From NCBI GenBank assembly GCA_000092065.1, contig CP000594.1: 64,000 nt of DNA, one strand, 5' to 3'. Position numbers and translations under genes: made by a program. The number at the start of each line of letters is the position of its first letter. Positions within the stretch are counted from its first letter, which is position 1. The notes below the pieces were generated by a model. The model was not told the origin of the DNA and ran no database searches. It was given only the letters and a program-made list of their open reading frames with translations. Of the stretch, positions 4,169 to 51,928 are shown piece after piece. This DNA comes from Ostreococcus lucimarinus. Lineage: Eukaryota.

Positions 4169-4909
4169 CTACGCCGAGAACAACTCCTCCAAAGTCATGT
4201 CCCGCATCTTGGCCACTTCCTTGAACGTTCGCATCTCGTTCAACCCCGCAACGACCGCCCGCGCATTATTCAACGGGTTCGAGCTTCCGAGCTGTTTCGC
4301 GAAGCAATTCTTATAGCCCGCCAGCTCCAAAACCGTGCGGCACGCGCCCCCCGCGATGACCCCCGTCCCCGGGCTCGCCGGGCGCAGCATCACCACCGCG
4401 CCGCCCTTCCCCTTCACCGTCACTCGATGCGGGAACGTGTCCCCTTTAGTTATCGGCGCTCGCTTCGCGCTCTTTCGCGCATCGCTCGCCGCCTTCGTCA
4501 CCGCGATTTGCACCTCCTTCGCCTTCTGGCACCCGACGCCAACCAAACCCTTGCCGTCGCCCACGACCACGGTGGCGCGGAAGCTCATCTGCGACCCGCC
4601 CTTGGTGATTTTCGTGACGCGCGACACCTGGACGACGGACTCTTGCATCCCGTCGTCCTCCTTGCCGCCGCGACCGCGGCCTCGGCCGCCGCGACCACCG
4701 CGTCCGCCGCCGCGCCCGCCGCGCGCGCGCGGGGTCTCGGACTCGCCTTCGACTGCCGACGCGTCTGCGTCGTCGCCGGCGCGCGCGACCGTCGCCGTGC
4801 GCCGCGGGGCGACGGCGACAATTTTATCGCATCGGTTCGCGCGGCTCGGGAGGCGCGCGGACGCCGCGCGAGACGCGGGCGCGGCGGTGAGGGCGATGGA
4901 GGCCATCAT
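4169..4909 (-). CDS. Organelle-targeted (probably plastid) bacterial-type ribosomal protein S5 (uS5)
   Basis: C-terminal 160 aa align with bacterial S5 (VTKITKGG...[27 protein letters not shown]...[22 protein letters not shown]...K.LGS.NP.N...A...L). It is preceded by a transit-peptide-like N-terminus and an RGG-rich spacer. Confidence 0.85.
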
Positions 4910-5229
4910 GATTCGCGGCGCGACGTCGATGGTTGAATCGACGCGTGGAAGCGCGCGTGGGCGGCGGTCGTCCGGGCGTGCGGTGGGCGCGCGACGAAAC
5001 GATCGACGGTGCGCGTCGAGCGTGCGCGAGCGGCGACGATGGCGTCGCGGTGTGCGGCGCGGCGGCGGCGACGTTCGAGGGCGAGGGCGAGAGAAACCCT
5101 ATTGCTCCTTCAGGGTAGAGATGGGGTGGCGACCGACCGCGTGTGGGTAAACAGTGATAAATCGACGCGATCAGGACGCCGCGGCGCGCGCGAGTCGCTC
5201 GAAAAGGCGCGCGGGGATCGATCACAACG

Positions 5230-9263: not shown

Positions 9264-9345
9264 CGCATTCGGCAGGATTTGAACCTACGCACGGAGACCG
9301 TATTCGATTTCTAGTCGAACCCCTTAACCACTCGGGCACGAATGC
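9264..9345 (-). tRNA. tRNA-Ser (anticodon AGA), type II with a long variable arm
   Basis: The reverse complement GCATTCGTGCCCGAGTGGTTAAGGGGTTCGACTAGAAATCGAATACGGTCTCCGTGCGTAGGTTCAAATCCTGCCGAATGCG folds as a cloverleaf. It has a 7-bp acceptor stem GCATTCG/CGAATGC, a D-loop AGTGGTTAA, an anticodon loop CT-AGA-AA, a 15-nt variable arm, and a T-arm GTAGG-TTCAAAT-CCTGC. Confidence 0.85.
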
Positions 9346-41783: not shown

Positions 41784-43028
41784 TTACGCGGCCGCACGAA
41801 GAGCTTCGAGCTTGGCCTTGAGGTTGGCCTTCTTCTCTTCGTACGTGAGCTTCGGAAGCTTGAACAGACGCCCAGCGTCCGCCGGCTTCACGCGTTCCTT
41901 CTTCTCGTGGACGGGGTCTTCGCGAATGGCATCGAGGACGTCCTCCATGGCGTCTTCGAGCTCAGTCGGGTCGAAGTCCGCGGCCAAGTACTTGGCAAAC
42001 TGCTGTTCGAACTTTTCCGGTTCCTCCTCTTGCAGCTCTTCCGCGTACTCGGCGACAACACCACCCTTGATGTATCGCTCGAGAGTGTCCGGATCGTGGG
42101 ACTTGTCTTGGAGATCGTACCCAGCGAATCGCTTTTCGTTGTGCGGAATGTCCAACCCGCCGTCCACCGCACCCTTGAGCGCAGCGAACACTCGCGCGCC
42201 GGTCGACGTTCGCACCAAACCGGTGTCCAAGAAGCACTTGAACGGGCGCGCTTCCTCATCACCTTGTTCAACGTGGTAATCCTCCCCGAGGTCCTCCGTC
42301 TTACCCTCGTACGCATCCGCCAAGCCGTACTTCGTCAACAGTCGTCGCGCGCACAGCAACCCGGTCGCGTACGTCGCGGCGTAGTTCGTCAAACCCGCCT
42401 TCATCCCGTACTTCGGCAACTCGTGCGAGTACGCGGACGCGATGCACACGTCACCCGCGAGCGTGGCGTAGACAACTTGGCAAATCACATCGCGGTTCGT
42501 AAAGCGCACGACGAATCGGTACTTCGGCGAGTTGTACTTGTTCTTGTCCTGCGTGATCAAGCGCTGACGAGCGTAGTAATCCGTCTTGCCTGCGAGCGCG
42601 AAAACGTCCCGCGTCCAGCGCGAGCGCGTGATTTAAATCGTCAGTCCACACTCTGCGCGCTCGCACGCCCGCGCGCGCGTCGCGCGCGCGCTCGTTCGCG
42701 CCCGCGCGCGCGGTGCCGAAAAACCCTCGAGCGCGCCACCGCGCGGACATCGATGCGCCCCACGTCGCCGCGCCGCGCGCGCGCGCGATCGCACGCGTTC
42801 GAAACGAAGCATACGAATCATCCGCATCGAACGACGCGATCGACGCCGTCTCGACGGCGTCGACGCGTCGGTCGCGGCGCGATGATCGTCGCGCGATCGA
42901 GAAAGCCCTAAACGCGATGCCGAAGACGTACCAGCGCGGCGACGCGCGAACTTGACTTGGAAGCGCGAGAAGTACGCGTTGGTCTTCGCCACGGATTGGG
43001 ACTTGCGTTTGACTTTTCTGCGACCCAT
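41784..43028 (-). CDS. RPL5: 60S ribosomal protein L5 (uL18), two exons
   Basis: Exon 2 (42589..41784) encodes ...GKTDYYARQRLITQDKNKYNSPKYRFVVRFTNRDVICQ... to the C-terminus. Exon 1 (43028..42932) encodes MGRRKVKRKSQSVAKTNAYFSRFQVKFARRRA. The donor is G|GTACGT and the acceptor ...CTGAC...CGCAG|GC. Together they are 903 nt, giving 300 aa, and they restore the conserved FRRRREGKTDYYAR junction. Confidence 0.85.
42590..42931 (-). other. Intron of RPL5 (342 nt, GT-AG)
   Basis: GTACGT donor, CTGAC branch ~50 nt upstream of the CAG acceptor. It contains GTTTAGGGC (a telomere-repeat-like unit) about 20 nt downstream of the donor. Confidence 0.8.
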
Positions 43029-43504
43029 GGTTGCGTCGTGTGACACGCGAGGCGCGCGCGTCGAAAAGACGGAGCGCGACGGGCGGGGCGTGGCATCGTG
43101 CGCGCGAGGATGGTGTGGTCCGTGTTTGTAGTTTACGATTTTGTTCCAAAGGCGTACTGCTACAGGCGCTCGCGCACGACGACGGGCACCGTTCGCTCGC
43201 CCACGGGTTCGCCGCGAATGAAGAGCGGAATGTCGTACTCGCCGAAATCTACGATCGGGCGCTCGAGCATGAGCGCGCCAGGGGTAAGATTGAGGGATTT
43301 CTGACGTCGAATCTGGAGAGAGACGAAGGCGCGGCGGTGAGTCTTCGCGAGGGTAGAAATCAAACAAACGCCGGGTGTCGGCGGTGCTCGACGGTCGTCG
43401 TCGTCGGTGTCGTCGTCGCGTCAGAATAATGTCTCCTCACGGGTTATAGGCATGAATCCGTCCATTCAGACGGAGGCGCGATGCTATCAGGTGACAATTT
43501 CTCT

Positions 43505-43765
43505 TCACTCGCGAACGAAGACGAGACGAGACGAGATGAGAATCGAATCGACGGAGCGCGCGTCAGTCGAATCACGCACCTCTTCAACGATATTTTCCCG
43601 CGTCACCGCGATGCGAGGTTTCCCAGTTTTCTTGTCCTTAATTCTTCTAAAAGCGATCGCCGGTTCCGCGGTGAGCATCTTCATCACCGTGGCGCGTTCC
43701 TGCGAGTACGTACGATCGTCGTCGGCGTCAGTCCTAGCGCCATTGGCGTTTTGATTCATCGTCAT
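43505..43765 (-). CDS. Small hypothetical ORF of 86 aa, possibly an exon of a spliced gene
   Basis: Moderate-GC, basic region AIAFRRIKDKKTGKPRIAVTRENIVEEV. I cannot assign it to a family. Confidence 0.25.
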   Translation of the reverse strand: MTMNQNANGARTDADDDRTYSQERATVMKMLTAEPAIAFRRIKDKKTGKPRIAVTRENIVEEVRDSTDARSVDSILISSRLVFVRE

Positions 43766-43945
43766 GATTGACGACGTGCGACGTTCGCGCGCCAGATACT
43801 TTGCTCAGACAGCCAAGGGAAACGTTTTGTAAACACCGGAGCCGAAACTCGAATCTTCAGAAACTCTAGTCCGTAGAAAGTTCCAGTCATCATCGCAGGC
43901 GTATCAAATGCCTCGACTTCGTCAGCGTCGTCATCACGGCGACGG

Positions 43946-44455
43946 CTACTCGATCATTTCTCCCATCGCGTCGCTACGTACCTTGCGTTTGTGTTCCTCC
44001 TCTTGCGCCGTCGCCGCGGCTTCGTCTCCGTCCTCCCCCCCCGCCTCGATTCGCGCCCTCTCCCGCGCCGCCAACCGCTCGCGCGCCGCCGCTAACTTCT
44101 CCGCATTCACATACGTCGCCAACTTCCCCGGCACGAGATGATTCCTCGCCCGTCCCGGCCGCACGTGCGCGACCTCGTCGACGTCGCCGAGCCCGCTCAC
44201 CGGCGCCCTCAGAATCACCTCCACCCTCCGGTTCGCCTTCTTCCACCACCGCCGCTCGACGCGCATCGACGCCGGCATCACCCCAGCCTCCCCCACGCGC
44301 GCGCTCGCGCTCGACGCGATCGACAGCGCGCGCGCGCGCCCCGGCACCGTCGAACCTCCCGTCGGCGCGCGCGCCTCCACCGCGCGCTCGCCGAGCGCCC
44401 GCGCGAGCGCGCGCGTCGCGCGTCGCGTCGCGTCGCGCGCGCGCGGTCCCCACAT
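43946..44455 (-). CDS. Organelle-targeted bacterial-type ribosomal protein L9 (bL9), N-terminal domain
   Basis: VEVILRAPVSGLGDVDEVAHVRPGRARNHLVPGKLATYVNAEKLAAARERLAARERARIEAG aligns with the bacterial L9 N-domain (MQVILL.KV..LG..GD.V.VK.GYARNFL.P.GKA..AT..N...FE.RR.E.E.K). It is preceded by a transit-peptide-like leader. The start may be 44455 or the ATG at 44278. Confidence 0.6.
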   Translation of the reverse strand: MWGPRARDATRRATRALARALGERAVEARAPTGGSTVPGRARALSIASSASARVGEAGVMPASMRVERRWWKKANRRVEVILRAPVSGLGDVDEVAHVRPGRARNHLVPGKLATYVNAEKLAAARERLAARERARIEAGGEDGDEAAATAQEEEHKRKVRSDAMGEMIE

Positions 44456-44714
44456 CGCGCGTCACGCGTTCGTCGCGCGCGCCGTCGCCGTCGCGCGCGC
44501 CGTCGTCGTCGCGCTCTGCCGCCGCGCGCGCCGATCGACCCACCGATCGATTCGTTTTCAATCGAACCTCGAGCGAGGTTCGCTCGCGCGCGCTCGATCG
44601 ACGATCGTCGATCGACTCCGGGGCGTCGAACGCGGCCTCGCGGGGGCAGAGCGCGACGACGCCGCGCGCGCGATCCGTCTCTTTGCGACGCGCGAAAGCC
44701 GACGCTCTTTCGAG

Positions 44715-45596
44715 ATGCCGACGAGGTGCGGGCGATGAAACGGCGAGCGATGCGATGCGTTCGATCGGGCGCGACGTCGCGGCGCGCGCGCGGTCGCGCG
44801 CGCGACGGGAGGGGCGAACGCGGCGTGGGACGCGATGGCGAGCCCTAGCGATCGGTGTGCGGCGTGGACGCGCCCGGGCGAGCGGCGCGAACGCGCGCGG
44901 GCGCTCGCGCGCGCGCGGTTGGGCGTGCGGGATTGCGATGCGTCGTTTCGAGGCGCGCGCGGGCGGGCGTGCGGGGGAGACGCGCGCGTTCGACGCGCGC
45001 GTTCGGCGCGTTCGGAGGCTTTAGGGTTTTTAGGAGGACTCGACGCGGGACGCGTCGCGGAGCGCGCGGCGCGGTGGTTCGCGCGATGGCGCGAGAGCGA
45101 TGGAAAAACTTCGGAGAATCGTCGACTGACCGAGGACGTGTGTTTGTTTGCGCGCGCGATTAGGTTGCATAAGAACCGCAAGAAGCGCGGGCACGTGTCC
45201 GCGGGTCACGGCCGTATCGGTAAGCACCGCAAGCACCCGGCGGGTCGCGGTATGGCGGGTGGTCAACACCATCACAGAATTATGATGGATAAGTATCACC
45301 CGGGTTACTTCGGTAAGGTTGGTATGCGTCACTTCCACAAGCTCAAGAACCACTACCACTGCCCGACCATCAACATTGACAAGCTTTGGACGCTCGTCGG
45401 CGAGGAGAAGCGTGAGGAGTGCGCCAAGAACACGTCTCAAGCGCCGGTGATTGATCTCACTGATCACGGTATCTTCAAGCTTCTCGGTAAGGGTCAACTC
45501 CCGAGCCAACCGGTCGTGGTGAAGTGCCGTTACATTAGCAAACTCGCCGAAAAGAAGATCAAGGATGTCGGCGGCGCGTGCATTCTCACCGCGTAA
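44715..45596 (+). CDS. RPL27A: 60S ribosomal protein L27a (uL15), with an 11-nt first micro-exon
   Basis: Exon 2 (45164..45596) encodes (R)[58 protein letters not shown]... to the stop codon. The missing Met-Pro-Thr-Arg N-terminus is supplied by ATGCCGACGAG|GTGCGG at 44715..44725. The intron (44726..45163) ends ...CTGACCGAGGACGTGTGTTTGTTTGCGCGCGCGATTAG|G. The spliced product is [14 protein letters not shown]..., 147 aa. Confidence 0.75.
45016..45034. promoter_or_regulatory. Telo-box-like element (AAACCCTAA on the minus strand; GGCTTTAGGGTTTTTAGG on the plus strand) inside RPL27a intron 1
   Basis: Sequence ctttagggtttttagg. The plant telo-box AAACCCTA is a known cis-element of ribosomal-protein and translation-apparatus genes. 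Coordinates are approximate. Confidence 0.5.
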
Positions 45597-49549: not shown

Positions 49550-51928
49550 ATGCGGGGCGCGCCCCCGCCCCTGTACCCGTGGCAGGCCGAAGCGATAAAC
49601 CTCGTCGCCGCGTCGCGTCGCTCGCTGTGCTACACGGCGCCCACGGGCGGCGGTAAAAGTCGCGTCGCCGATGAGTTGTTACGACTGTCCCTGACAAACT
49701 TTCCCGCGGCGAAAGCGCTCGTCGTGCTGCCGTACGTCGCGCTCGTGCGGGAAAAAGTGGCGTCGTTGGAGTCGTTGTTACGCCCGCTCGGGATCAAGGT
49801 GAGGGGCTACGCCGGGGTGGAGTGCGAGGGGGCGCCGTTGGGGAGCTCGAGAGAGCGCTGCGCGGTGACGACGATTGAAAAGGCGTCGTCGTGCGTCAAT
49901 AGACTGTTCGAAACGGGCGAGATATCGCTGCTCAGCGTCGTGGTGGTGGATGAGCTGCACATGGTCAGCGAAGACGAACGTGGGTGCGCGCTGGAGGGGA
50001 TGTTGGCGAAGATACGACACGGAGTGAAGTCGGGAAAGGTGTCGAGCGACGGCCCGCAAATCGTGTGCATGAGCGCGACGGTGGGAAAGTCATCGATGGA
50101 ACGCTTAGCGAGGTGGTTAGACGCGGAGATTTACGTCAGTCATCATCGGCCGGTGGAGTTGAAAGAGTACGTGGTGTGCGTGGGTGGGGTGTATGCGAAG
50201 GAGAATCGAGGTGAGGCGGGCTGGGAGCTGACGCGCGTGGCCGATTCGCCGTCGCGAGTGGAGTTGGAGATCGTCGCCGAACTGGTTGGTCAAGTGTTCG
50301 TCAACGCGCACAGCTCGTTGGTATTTTGCTCGAGCAAGAGTCAGTGTTCAGTTTATGCGACGAAATTGGCGAGCTTGCTTCCGGTGAATCCGAACACGGC
50401 GCACCTGCGAGAAGAGTGCGTGGCGAGACTCTACGAAGCTGCGGAGGGCGAGCCCGACCAAGCGCTAGTAGCGTGTGTTCGCTCCGGTCTCGCGTGGCAT
50501 CACGCCGGATTAACGACGGCAGAGAAGAGAGTAATCGAAGAGGGCTTTCGAGCTGGTGCGATTTTAGCGCTCACATGCACGACGACTCTTGCTGCGGGCG
50601 TCAACTTGCCCGCTCGCCGTTGCGTCATCCTTCGCGGCTTCATCGCCGGTTTACCGACGCCTTCGATGGCTCAGTACAAACAAATGGCTGGTCGAGCTGG
50701 AAGAAAAGGGCAAAGCGATTTCGGTGAATCTTTCCTAGTCACGACGAAACAAGAGGCCGTGGATTGGGCGCGAAATCTAGTACTCGGCGAGCTACCGGCT
50801 TTGGAGTCGCGTCTGTTTCCTCCTGCAATCAAGCGCCATGACATGCCCGTGACGCCAGAACAACGACGGTTTTATCTCGAATCCATCGCGTGTGGAGTAC
50901 TCAAGACAAAGGAAGACGCCGGTGAGCTGGCTTGTCGCACGTTTGCTTGGACATCTGGACGCGATAACGCGTCAATTCTCGCCCGTCAAAGCCGAGCGTT
51001 GAAGGAAATTTACGAAAAAGGGCTGGTTGTCGCGCGCTCCGGCGCGCATTGCGCTGAGTGGTGCTCTACTCCAGAGGGATTCGCGTTCTACAAGTGTACT
51101 TTACCGATAGCACACGCTAAGACGCTGCGGAAAGAGTTGTCTTTCGCGCTTACGAATGGATTGAATCTTTCGACGAAGACGCACTTGCTATTCTTTTGCG
51201 TGTCGAACGAAACCAACGTCTTCGCAGCAAACTTGAATTGGCACGCGTGGAGCGATTGGATGAGTCGATACGACAGTATTCATGAACTTGGGGAGAAACA
51301 TTTGAATGTCACCCGACAGTACGCAGAAAGAGCGCAGCATCGACAAGGGATATCAGACCAAGCCAAGGCGACTCGGTCGCGCCATGAGCGTCTCGCTGCG
51401 GCGTTGCTGTTGAGCGACGTGTTGGCGAGCGACGACACCACCGTCGACATTGCGCGCAAATGGTCAACGTTATCGAACAATCCCGTCAACCGTGGGATGA
51501 TTCAATCTCTTCAAAACAGCGCGGCGACGACGGCGGGCATGGCGAGCGTGCTGTGCGAACAGTGCGGCTGGCACGCGCTCGCAGGTCTTTTGCAAAACGT
51601 TAGCGAAGAGTTGCAAGCTGGCGCGCGACGAGAGCTATTACCGCTGATGCGTCTCGAAGGCATGACCGGCGCAAGAGCACGAGCTCTACATAACGCCGGA
51701 CTAACGACGCCTGCGAAAATCGCGGCACTTCAGAGCGATAAGTTTGACAAGCTGCAAGATGCTTGCCTGCGTTCGCTGACGCGATCGAGAAACGGCGGCT
51801 TGGATCAAGCCATGCGTACCACGGCGTGGAGAATCGCAAGCGCTCTCGTGCAATCGGCTCGTGAAGCGACAATCGAGGAGGCGAAACGGGCGTTGGAAGA
51901 CGATTCTAACGCTGAATGGTTAAATTAA
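49550..51928 (+). CDS. HELQ: Hel308/HELQ-like superfamily-2 DNA helicase
   Basis: Walker A (APTGGGKS), DEAH-like motif II (VVDELH), SAT, motif VI (QMAGRAGRKG). Ski2/Hel308-type C-terminal winged-helix/ratchet region. Confidence 0.7.
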   Translation: MRGAPPPLYPWQAEAINLVAASRRSLCYTAPTGGGKSRVADELLRLSLTNFPAAKALVVLPYVALVREKVASLESLLRPLGIKVRGYAGVECEGAPLGSSRERCAVTTIEKASSCVNRLFETGEISLLSVVVVDELHMVSEDERGCALEGMLAKIRHGVKSGKVSSDGPQIVCMSATVGKSSMERLARWLDAEIYVSHHRPVELKEYVVCVGGVYAKENRGEAGWELTRVADSPSRVELEIVAELVGQVFVNAHSSLVFCSSKSQCSVYATKLASLLPVNPNTAHLREECVARLYEAAEGEPDQALVACVRSGLAWHHAGLTTAEKRVIEEGFRAGAILALTCTTTLAAGVNLPARRCVILRGFIAGLPTPSMAQYKQMAGRAGRKGQSDFGESFLVTTKQEAVDWARNLVLGELPALESRLFPPAIKRHDMPVTPEQRRFYLESIACGVLKTKEDAGELACRTFAWTSGRDNASILARQSRALKEIYEKGLVVARSGAHCAEWCSTPEGFAFYKCTLPIAHAKTLRKELSFALTNGLNLSTKTHLLFFCVSNETNVFAANLNWHAWSDWMSRYDSIHELGEKHLNVTRQYAERAQHRQGISDQAKATRSRHERLAAALLLSDVLASDDTTVDIARKWSTLSNNPVNRGMIQSLQNSAATTAGMASVLCEQCGWHALAGLLQNVSEELQAGARRELLPLMRLEGMTGARARALHNAGLTTPAKIAALQSDKFDKLQDACLRSLTRSRNGGLDQAMRTTAWRIASALVQSAREATIEEAKRALEDDSNAEWLN

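Follow-up and report, generated by a model that had tools for sequence, protein, structure and literature searches.

Telomere-repeat words in 5' introns of cytosolic ribosomal-protein genes of Ostreococcus lucimarinus and related Mamiellales: a probable cis-regulatory site

Telomere words in the first introns of RPL27a and RPL5

The window analyzed here is a 64-kb stretch of nuclear DNA of Ostreococcus lucimarinus (G+C ~63%), in which two genes for cytosolic ribosomal proteins (RPs), RPL27a (uL15) and RPL5 (uL18), carry short telomere-repeat words in their first introns. The gene order RPL5 (-), organellar RPL9 (-), and RPL27a (+) (window 41784-45596) is conserved across Ostreococcus, Micromonas, and Bathycoccus. 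The exons and introns concerned are the following.

44715-44725, plus strand: RPL27a exon 1 (ATG CCG ACG AG), with the ATG at 44715
44726-45163, plus strand: RPL27a intron 1, 438 nt, ~73% G+C, GT..AG
45164-45596, plus strand: RPL27a exon 2, running through the stop codon, placed by a homology match
42932-43028, minus strand: RPL5 exon 1, with the ATG at 43028, placed by tblastn
42590-42931, minus strand: RPL5 intron 1, 342 nt; exon 2 begins at 42589 (tblastn)

A branch-site-like word, ACTGACCG, lies near the 3' end of RPL27a intron 1. The Ostreococcus genome is compact and intron-poor, and long first introns in RP genes are odd for so compact a genome. RPL5 and RPL27a have first introns of 340-470 nt, very CG-rich, whose length but not sequence has been preserved in Ostreococcus, M. 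pusilla, and Bathycoccus.

The telomere repeat of Ostreococcus and its relatives is CCCTAAA/TTTAGGG (PMC4378021, PMC5455958), and the words in the RPL27a and RPL5 introns are therefore true copies of the telomere unit. The sites found in these introns, together with the only other full core of the plant telo-box in the window, are listed here.

45020-45034 (core 45020-45029), plus strand: TTTAGGGTTT followed by TTAGG, in RPL27a intron 1; nearly two telomere units with one extra T
42902-42913, minus strand: GTTTAGGGCTTT (AAAGCCCTAAAC on the plus strand), in RPL5 intron 1; one telomere unit, TTTAGGG (42906-42912)
42719-42727, minus strand: AGGGTTTTT, a second telomere-like word in RPL5 intron 1 (AGGGTTT at 42721-42727)
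5094-5101, plus strand: AAACCCTA, 185 nt upstream of the ATG (4909) of an S5 gene

The original prediction had placed telomere-repeat motifs in the first introns of both cytosolic RP genes, and its gene models and coordinates proved correct. The telo-box string that it reported in RPL27a intron 1 is present as CTTTAGGGTTTTTAGG at 45019-45034 on the sense strand, and the core, TTTAGGGTTT, reads as the full telo-box AAACCCTAAA on the other strand. For RPL5, the position given, about 20 nt after the donor, agrees with our finding (intron position 19), but the word is not a canonical telo-box and represents the variant AAGCCCTAAA; the string GTTTAGGGC is the RPL5 sense strand from 42913 down to 42905 and does not contain the full AAACCCTA. 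The second RPL5 word AGGGTTTTT and the AAACCCTA at 5094-5101 had both been overlooked. The gene downstream of the latter (4169-4909, minus strand) encodes a bacterial-type ribosomal protein S5 (Pfam Ribosomal_S5 and S5_C; TIGR01021 rpsE_bact, 182 bits, above the cut-off) with an N-terminal extension of ~86 residues, and we take it to be organellar.

These words are rare in the window. AAACCCTA occurs twice in the 64 kb against 0.31 expected occurrences, and CCCTAAA occurs five times against 1.23 expected, a count reached by 0 of 100 shuffles; AACCCTA by itself was not enriched in the window. Ten telomere-family 7-mers are present in total, three of them within the two RP 5' regions that make up 2.2% of the window (binomial p ~1e-3). 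Besides the site upstream of the S5 gene, the others fall within coding sequences (a kinase, ATG101, an esterase, and S5 itself), and one (28131) is close to the stop codon of a further open reading frame. Apart from 28131, every telomere word in the 64 kb outside long open reading frames is at the 5' end of an RP gene.

Conservation of the motif in RPL27a and RPL5 across Mamiellales

The orthologous loci were compared in O. tauri (L005), Ostreococcus sp. 2 (metagenome contigs L011-L015), Micromonas commoda (L007), Micromonas pusilla (L010), and Bathycoccus (L009 and L016-L020). The RPL27a intron lies at the same codon in O. tauri, Ostreococcus sp. 2, Micromonas, and Bathycoccus and has a length of ~250-470 nt. 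The word TTTAGGGTTT recurs in the matching intron of three relatives: Ostreococcus sp. 2 (L011:4750), O. tauri (L005:5320), and M. pusilla (L010:5322). Together with O. lucimarinus, where the core lies 144 nt before exon 2, four RPL27a first introns (three Ostreococcus and M. pusilla) carry the word in sense orientation at a distance of 78-144 nt from the 3' splice site. These four introns could not be consistently aligned by MAFFT, and the copies of the motif even fell in different columns. The only 10-mers common to all four are TTTAGGGTTT and (CG)5, and the next conserved word in the Ostreococcus introns is the 8-nt branch-site-like word described above; the conserved motif is therefore longer than the conserved branch-site word. 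O. tauri RPL27a contains an inverted pair of telomere words 100 nt apart, the second of which is C-rich, and in M. commoda RPL27a, CCCTAAAA is found at -90 relative to the ATG and intron 2 holds TTTAGGGTT. Within species, one variable column was found among O. lucimarinus contigs and 13 in species 2, with 0 inside the 10-mer, a level of polymorphism too low to test constraint.

In RPL5, the sites turn over between species, and their position is not fixed.

RPL5, O. lucimarinus: TTTAGGGC and AGGGTTTTT, in intron 1
RPL5, Ostreococcus sp. 2: AAGCCCTAGA and AGGGTTTTT, in intron 1
RPL5, O. tauri: AAGCCCTAGA and TTTAGGGTT, in intron 1
RPL5, M. pusilla: AAACCCTAA, 32 nt after the donor
RPL5, M. commoda: AGGGTTT, and ACCCTAACCC at the acceptor
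RPL5, Bathycoccus: the inverted pair TTTAGGGTATTAAACCCTA (L009:2784-2802; the same in L016), ~120 nt upstream of the ATG

The word on the sense strand of the RPL5 intron is G-rich in Ostreococcus (TTTAGGG in O. lucimarinus) and C-rich (AAACCCTAA) in M. pusilla. AAGCCCTA is common to the RPL5 introns of all three Ostreococcus species, on either strand. The promoter that holds the Bathycoccus pair TTTAGGGTATTAAACCCTA is shared with a Usp gene.

Blind recovery of the motif and its presence at further RP genes

The two genes in six species gave 12 regions, from ATG-250 to the end of intron 1, whose k-mers were compared with first-order Markov simulations of each region. The four highest-ranking of 3448 7-mers were all telomere words, ACCCTAA (9/12), CCCTAAA (8/12), AAACCCT (9/12), and AACCCTA (7/12), and they stood ahead of the start-codon words. 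Their expected counts were 0.17-0.41, and the nominal p-values of 1e-11 to 1e-16 are overstated because the orthologues are related, whereas the ranking does not depend on them. AGCCCTA/AAGCCCT followed directly after the telomere words.

RPS15a (O. tauri, M. pusilla, M. commoda, and Bathycoccus) and RPS14 (M. pusilla and M. commoda) served as out-of-sample genes and were chosen without the motif in view. RPS15a was reached through one metagenome scan with a chimeric RPS23, RPL23, and RPS15a alignment (two RPS15a peptides), whose matches were mostly fungi, plants, and other algae and included no Mamiellales; RPS14 is the divergent neighbor of RPS15a in M. pusilla, and a homologue search, which was saturated, added M. 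commoda only. The sites in these genes are as follows.

RPS15a, O. tauri: TTTAGGGT, in introns 1 and 3
RPS15a, M. pusilla: TTTAGGGTTT, in intron 1
RPS15a, M. commoda: TTAGGGT in intron 1, and AAACCCT at -50
RPS15a, Bathycoccus: ACCCTAA only, in intron 2
RPS14, M. pusilla: CCCTAAA, in intron 2
RPS14, M. commoda: AAACCCTAAA, in intron 2

In the six out-of-sample regions, ACCCTAA and CCCTAAA ranked third and fourth of 3114 words, after two coding words, and AGCCCTA ranked ninth. The placement of the motif in 5' introns, which the original prediction had noted, holds for intron 1 of RPL27a and RPL5 and extends to 5'-proximal introns of RPS15a and RPS14 in the relatives. Plant-like RPS15a contigs (L021 and L071), which served as a positive control, had three telo-boxes at -150 to -245. 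A marine, trebouxiophyte-like RPS15a contig (L028) had no telo-box within 4 kb; this contig could be ruled out as a motif-less member of the Mamiellales since it is closest to the trebouxiophytes Helicosporidium and Chlorella, and the motif may be absent at RPS15a in core chlorophytes. A picoeukaryote RPS15a locus (L123) had only one 7-mer, at -485 and was uninformative.

Association with the cytosolic RP gene class

Annotated starts in all loci were then compared over a fixed span (ATG-300 to +550), giving 18 cytosolic RP gene instances (four families, six species) and 49 other genes. The telomere 7-mer family was found in 16/18 cytosolic RP genes against 10/49 others (Fisher 5e-7), and the telomere 8-mers in 11/18 against 4/49 (Fisher 2e-5). 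Two control words showed no enrichment: AAACCTCA was present in 3/18 cytosolic RP genes and 8/49 others, and a scrambled word in 0/18 and 2/49. Organellar RP genes had the 7-mer in 3/8 cases, which was not significant. Among the four 8-mer cases outside the RP class, one gene shares its promoter with Bathycoccus RPL5, and two share a single O. tauri site. When only introns were considered, about 20 sites were found in ~7.9 kb of cytosolic RP introns and 2-3 in ~4.8 kb of other introns (p = 0.003-0.01, with intron lengths estimated from gene tables). The association is not simply an effect of having introns.

The companion word AGCCCTA followed the same division, with 8/18 cytosolic RP genes against 0/49 others (Fisher 7e-6) and 0/8 organellar RP genes, a comparison that was partly post hoc. 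In the window, one member of this family is in RPL27a intron 1.

44841-44848, plus strand: AGCCCTAG, an AGCCCTA-family variant

AGCCCTA (AAGCCCTA[A/G]A) is also found at 42903-42910 of the window and in L011, L005, L007, and L107. It could be a variant of the telo-box or a separate site.

A conserved cis-regulatory site as the preferred explanation

An exact word kept in fast-evolving introns, the turnover of its position, and its strong but non-exclusive tie to one gene class together look like a transcription-factor site. The word is probably functional and tied to cytosolic RP genes in Ostreococcus and Micromonas, with a weaker tie in Bathycoccus. On balance, we favor the explanation that TTTAGGGTTT (equal to AAACCCTAAA on the other strand) serves the cytosolic RP genes of Mamiellales as a conserved cis-regulatory site, and we hold this, proposed mechanism included, with somewhat more confidence than doubt.

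In the mechanism that we infer from these sequences, the motif would act as double-stranded DNA just downstream of the transcription start, most often from intron 1 or 2 and occasionally from the short upstream stretch. Recognition of double-stranded DNA is favored because both orientations occur at equivalent places and because some sites precede the start codon (at -90 in M. commoda RPL27a, at -50 in M. commoda RPS15a, and at -123/-112 in Bathycoccus RPL5). On the sense strand, RPS14 sites are C-rich, and RPL27a and RPS15a sites are G-rich. The protein that binds the motif would be a telomere-type Myb protein. TRB proteins arose in streptophytes and have not been reported in chlorophytes (PMC10167121), and O. 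lucimarinus has two TRFL Myb proteins (XP_001421395 and XP_001416857), besides a POT1 that binds telomeric single-stranded DNA in vitro (PMC3400083); the two TRFL proteins are therefore the candidate readers. Binding may help set a common transcription level of RP genes, and housing the motif may be one reason why RP genes keep long 5' introns.

Several observations weigh against this explanation. RPL27a intron 1 of M. commoda has no site, and neither does RPL27a of Bathycoccus, where the signal is weak throughout: RPS15a offers no more than a 7-mer, located in intron 2, and RPL5 is the one gene with a good pair upstream. The sites, most of them in intron 1 or 2, are spread between -190 and +510 of the ATG, and the placement downstream of the transcription start is judged from ATG positions. 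Site II (TGGGCY) was not enriched, being present in 2/18 cytosolic RP 5' regions and 11/49 other genes, and no site II word was among the enriched k-mers of the 12-region blind test. A 7-mer is also present at ten of the 49 non-RP genes; in several cases it lies within the coding region or in a promoter that an RP gene shares. The Fisher values given above come from a small sample of non-independent orthologues (18 instances of four families in six related species) and are inflated. The full complement is roughly 80 cytosolic RP genes. Finally, the G-rich strand is the sense strand in 14/19 sites in transcribed parts, which would also fit a role in RNA, and this 14:5 excess runs counter to the usual notation of plant telo-boxes, which gives the C strand (AAACCCTA).

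Alternative explanations

The excess of G-rich sense sites bears most directly on an RNA-level element, in which intronic UUUAGGGU(UU) would be bound by a G-rich single-strand binder (an hnRNP-like RRM protein or a POT1-like protein) and would tune splicing or intron retention. All intron-1 sites of RPL27a and RPS15a contribute to this excess, the RPS15a word lies ~25-40 nt before the 3' splice site, just upstream of a branch-site-like CTGAC, and the in vitro binding of O. lucimarinus POT1 to telomeric single-stranded DNA (PMC3400083) points in the same direction. However, the orientation is C-rich in the introns of M. pusilla RPL5, of both Micromonas RPS14 genes, and at the second site of O. 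tauri RPL27a, and some sites are upstream of the ATG and perhaps untranscribed. The distance to the splice site also varies from 19 to ~300 nt, and the RPL27a intron, the only one folded, showed no unusual RNA structure (z = -0.44). Owing to the 14:5 excess, we regard an RNA-level element as unlikely rather than negligible.

Another explanation is that the words are non-functional by-products, left behind by telomerase or by the repair of transcription-associated breaks close to the 5' ends of very highly transcribed genes and since retained with no function. A transcription-associated spread of telo-boxes and microsatellites in plant 5' regions has been proposed (Gaspin et al., PMC3022908), RP genes are very highly expressed, and the site positions vary between genes and genera. 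Against this, the exact 10-mer is kept at the same place in RPL27a introns of four species that are otherwise unalignable; a neutral sequence would not survive there. The neighboring genes PsbP, ALAD (in three of four species), and cyclophilin, which are presumably highly expressed, have no site. In Candida albicans, moreover, a TTAGGG-type tbf1 palindrome at an RP promoter is required for the binding of Tbf1 and Fhl1 (PMC2834713). Deposition as a by-product appears quite unlikely.

The words could also be a general promoter-proximal or chromatin element of housekeeping genes that positions nucleosomes or boundaries and is not specific to RP genes. Good sites outside the cytosolic RP class exist between O. 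tauri ALAD and Elf1, in the M. pusilla intron of a presumed complex I subunit-like gene, and upstream of the organellar S5 gene. About 9-10% of Arabidopsis genes have a telo-box (PMC3022908). The contrasts of 16/18 against 10/49 and, for 8-mers, 11/18 against 4/49 speak for an association that is strong, although not exclusive. Plants show the same strong, non-exclusive pattern, and a general element therefore overlaps with the RP-gene site that we favor rather than replacing it; as a separate explanation, we consider it very unlikely.

Chance matches in two introns are conceivable in that a 7-mer is short and the motif was first found post hoc, but G+C-rich DNA seldom contains the word, the orthologues repeat it, and blind and out-of-sample tests both recovered it, so that the comparative data contradict chance, which we give almost no credence.

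Three further candidates were rejected. A repeated or mobile (introner-like) element was discarded since the RPL27a and RPL5 introns share only (CG)n-like low-complexity repeats, none of which contains the motif. An intron-hosted small nucleolar RNA (snoRNA) or other structured RNA was discarded since these introns gave no Rfam match even at E <= 1. An interstitial telomeric sequence left by repair or fusion was discarded since the sites span 1-1.5 units, are conserved in orthologous introns, and are tied to RP genes; the only array-like case was a 16-nt double repeat in O. tauri (L102:7463-7478).

Comparison with known telomere-word systems

The plant telo-box (AAACCCTA/AAACCCTAA) lies at the 5' end of the transcription unit, mostly in the 5' untranslated region (about -60 to +180 of the start), and Arabidopsis telo-boxes are more frequent in the first two introns (PMC3022908). 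It is present in 83% of rice RP genes and occurs in association with site II or TEF boxes (Gaspin et al. 2010, PMC3022908); its readers at translation genes are Myb proteins of the TRB1 type (Schrumpfova et al. 2016, cited from PMC4924339). The algal word is the same and likewise equals the organism's own telomere repeat, marks the cytosolic RP gene class at a comparable frequency (16/18), and, going by ATG positions, lies at the 5' end of the transcription unit. It is set apart by a mainly intronic rather than 5' untranslated placement (as judged from ATG positions), the lack of a site II (TGGGCY) partner, the mostly G-strand-sense orientation in introns, the enriched companion AGCCCTA, and a different presumed reader in a chlorophyte lineage reported to be without TRB (PMC10167121).

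RP genes of Chlamydomonas and Ectocarpus were reported to carry no telo-box, and the link was called land-plant specific (Wang et al. 2011, PMC3212954). The present data contradict this generalization for Mamiellales. AAACCCT (TBX), a time-of-day module, is over-represented in M. commoda promoters according to the Wolffia genome preprint of 2020 (Michael et al., bioRxiv 10.1101/2020.03.31.018291). That module shares the word and the Mamiellales lineage with our sites, and its gene set consists of orthologues of Arabidopsis genes with an assigned time-of-day phase. In the text considered here, the work concerns upstream promoters with phases taken from Arabidopsis, and Micromonas introns, RP genes, and conservation across genera are not addressed. 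The idea is thus known in plants and hinted at for Micromonas, and the present results correct a published generalization.

In fungi, Tbf1 binds TTAGGG-N6-CCCTAA at C. albicans RP genes and is described as the main RP regulator in most fungi (Lavoie et al. 2010, PMC2834713). As in the algae, a telomere-repeat word marks RP genes, and Tbf1 is a telobox Myb protein that reads double-stranded DNA; its sites are free in orientation in some species, and the Bathycoccus RPL5 pair TTTAGGGTATTAAACCCTA resembles the Candida palindrome. The fungal sites differ in being upstream or intergenic rather than intronic, and the fungal unit is TTAGGG. The palindromic arrangement TTAGGG-N6-CCCTAA is not general in the algae, where a close inverted pair was found in Bathycoccus RPL5 only and most sites are single. 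The likeness is one of sequence. Saccharomyces cerevisiae Rap1 is likewise a telomere-binding protein that doubles as an RP gene activator (PMC2834713), a double role that the candidate algal reader would share, but it belongs to another protein family, recognizes another motif, and has its sites upstream only (PMC2834713).

Other features of the window and related loci

The divergent intergenic region between RPL9 and RPL27a (~260 nt) is without a telomere word in O. lucimarinus. A C/D-box snoRNA-like sequence at 43798-43902 (minus strand), with ATGATGA near its 5' end and CTGA near its 3' end, gave snoZ157/R69/R10 as its best Rfam match (35.5 bits, E = 6e-5, under the gathering score); exons of organellar RPL9 flank it on both sides, and it is therefore probably intron hosted. 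The sole Rfam match above the gathering score in the window was a tRNA gene at 9264-9345 (minus strand). An intronless helicase gene (49550-51925) is unchanged on hundreds of marine metagenome contigs and is 100% identical over 361 aa to XP_001421235 of O. lucimarinus CCE9901, which identifies the window as DNA of that species.

A metatranscriptome-like contig of M. commoda RPL27a (L008, 913 nt) joins an unspliced exon 1 and intron 1 to the fully spliced mRNA. Its comparison with the genomic locus (L007) confirmed the splicing of M. commoda RPL27a, and the joined structure suggests either detectable intron-retaining transcripts or an assembly chimera. This one transcript contig places the 5' end of M. 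commoda RPL27a at or upstream of -50.

Outside the RP genes, the strongest site seen was the 16-nt double telomere repeat of O. tauri named above, TTTAGGGTTTAGGGTT, which lies between the divergent ALAD and Elf1 genes. In M. commoda (L108:8233-8771), six telomere-like words, some of them inverted with shared flanks (gatacagc / gctgtatc), lie within ~2.2 kb free of annotated genes between ALAD and FtsH. In M. pusilla (L010:656-663), AAACCCTA is in an intron of a gene for a 102-aa product without a Pfam match, which we take to resemble a small subunit of mitochondrial complex I (NDUFB2/AGGG-like).

Ancestry and biological meaning

Fungal control of RP genes by telomere-Myb proteins can be rewired (PMC2834713). 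Since such control is widespread yet easily rewired in fungi, common descent of the algal and plant systems cannot be assumed, and convergence is as possible as common descent given that Chlamydomonas RP genes reportedly lack the motif, TRB arose in streptophytes, and site II is unenriched. As a tentative possibility, which we doubt more than we believe, the link between the telomere repeat and RP genes may be ancestral to green plants and algae or even older, read in the TRB-less Mamiellales by TRFL proteins in 5' introns, with the sites retaining the introns and with a loss in Chlamydomonas. If this were true, the motif sites would be a selective reason why RP genes keep long introns in the most compact genomes of free-living eukaryotes, the change of telomere repeat in Chlamydomonas would have cost that alga the system, and the link would echo that of fungal Tbf1.

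With a conserved, RP-associated telomere word in Ostreococcus and Micromonas, and a weaker signal in Bathycoccus, the association is no longer confined to land plants, and its presence in algae reported to be without TRB implies a different reader. For annotation, the word may serve as a simple marker of RP 5' ends in marine picoalgal metagenomes. As a very small and transformable alga, O. tauri offers a model for asking how ribosome production comes under the control of telomere-binding Myb proteins, a question also posed by fungal Tbf1 and Rap1. Its diel transcriptome includes pre-dawn clusters for the cytosolic ribosome (Monnier et al. 2010, PMC2850359). For Ostreococcus itself, these results provide a concrete hypothesis for why RP genes may retain long 5' introns in an intron-poor genome.

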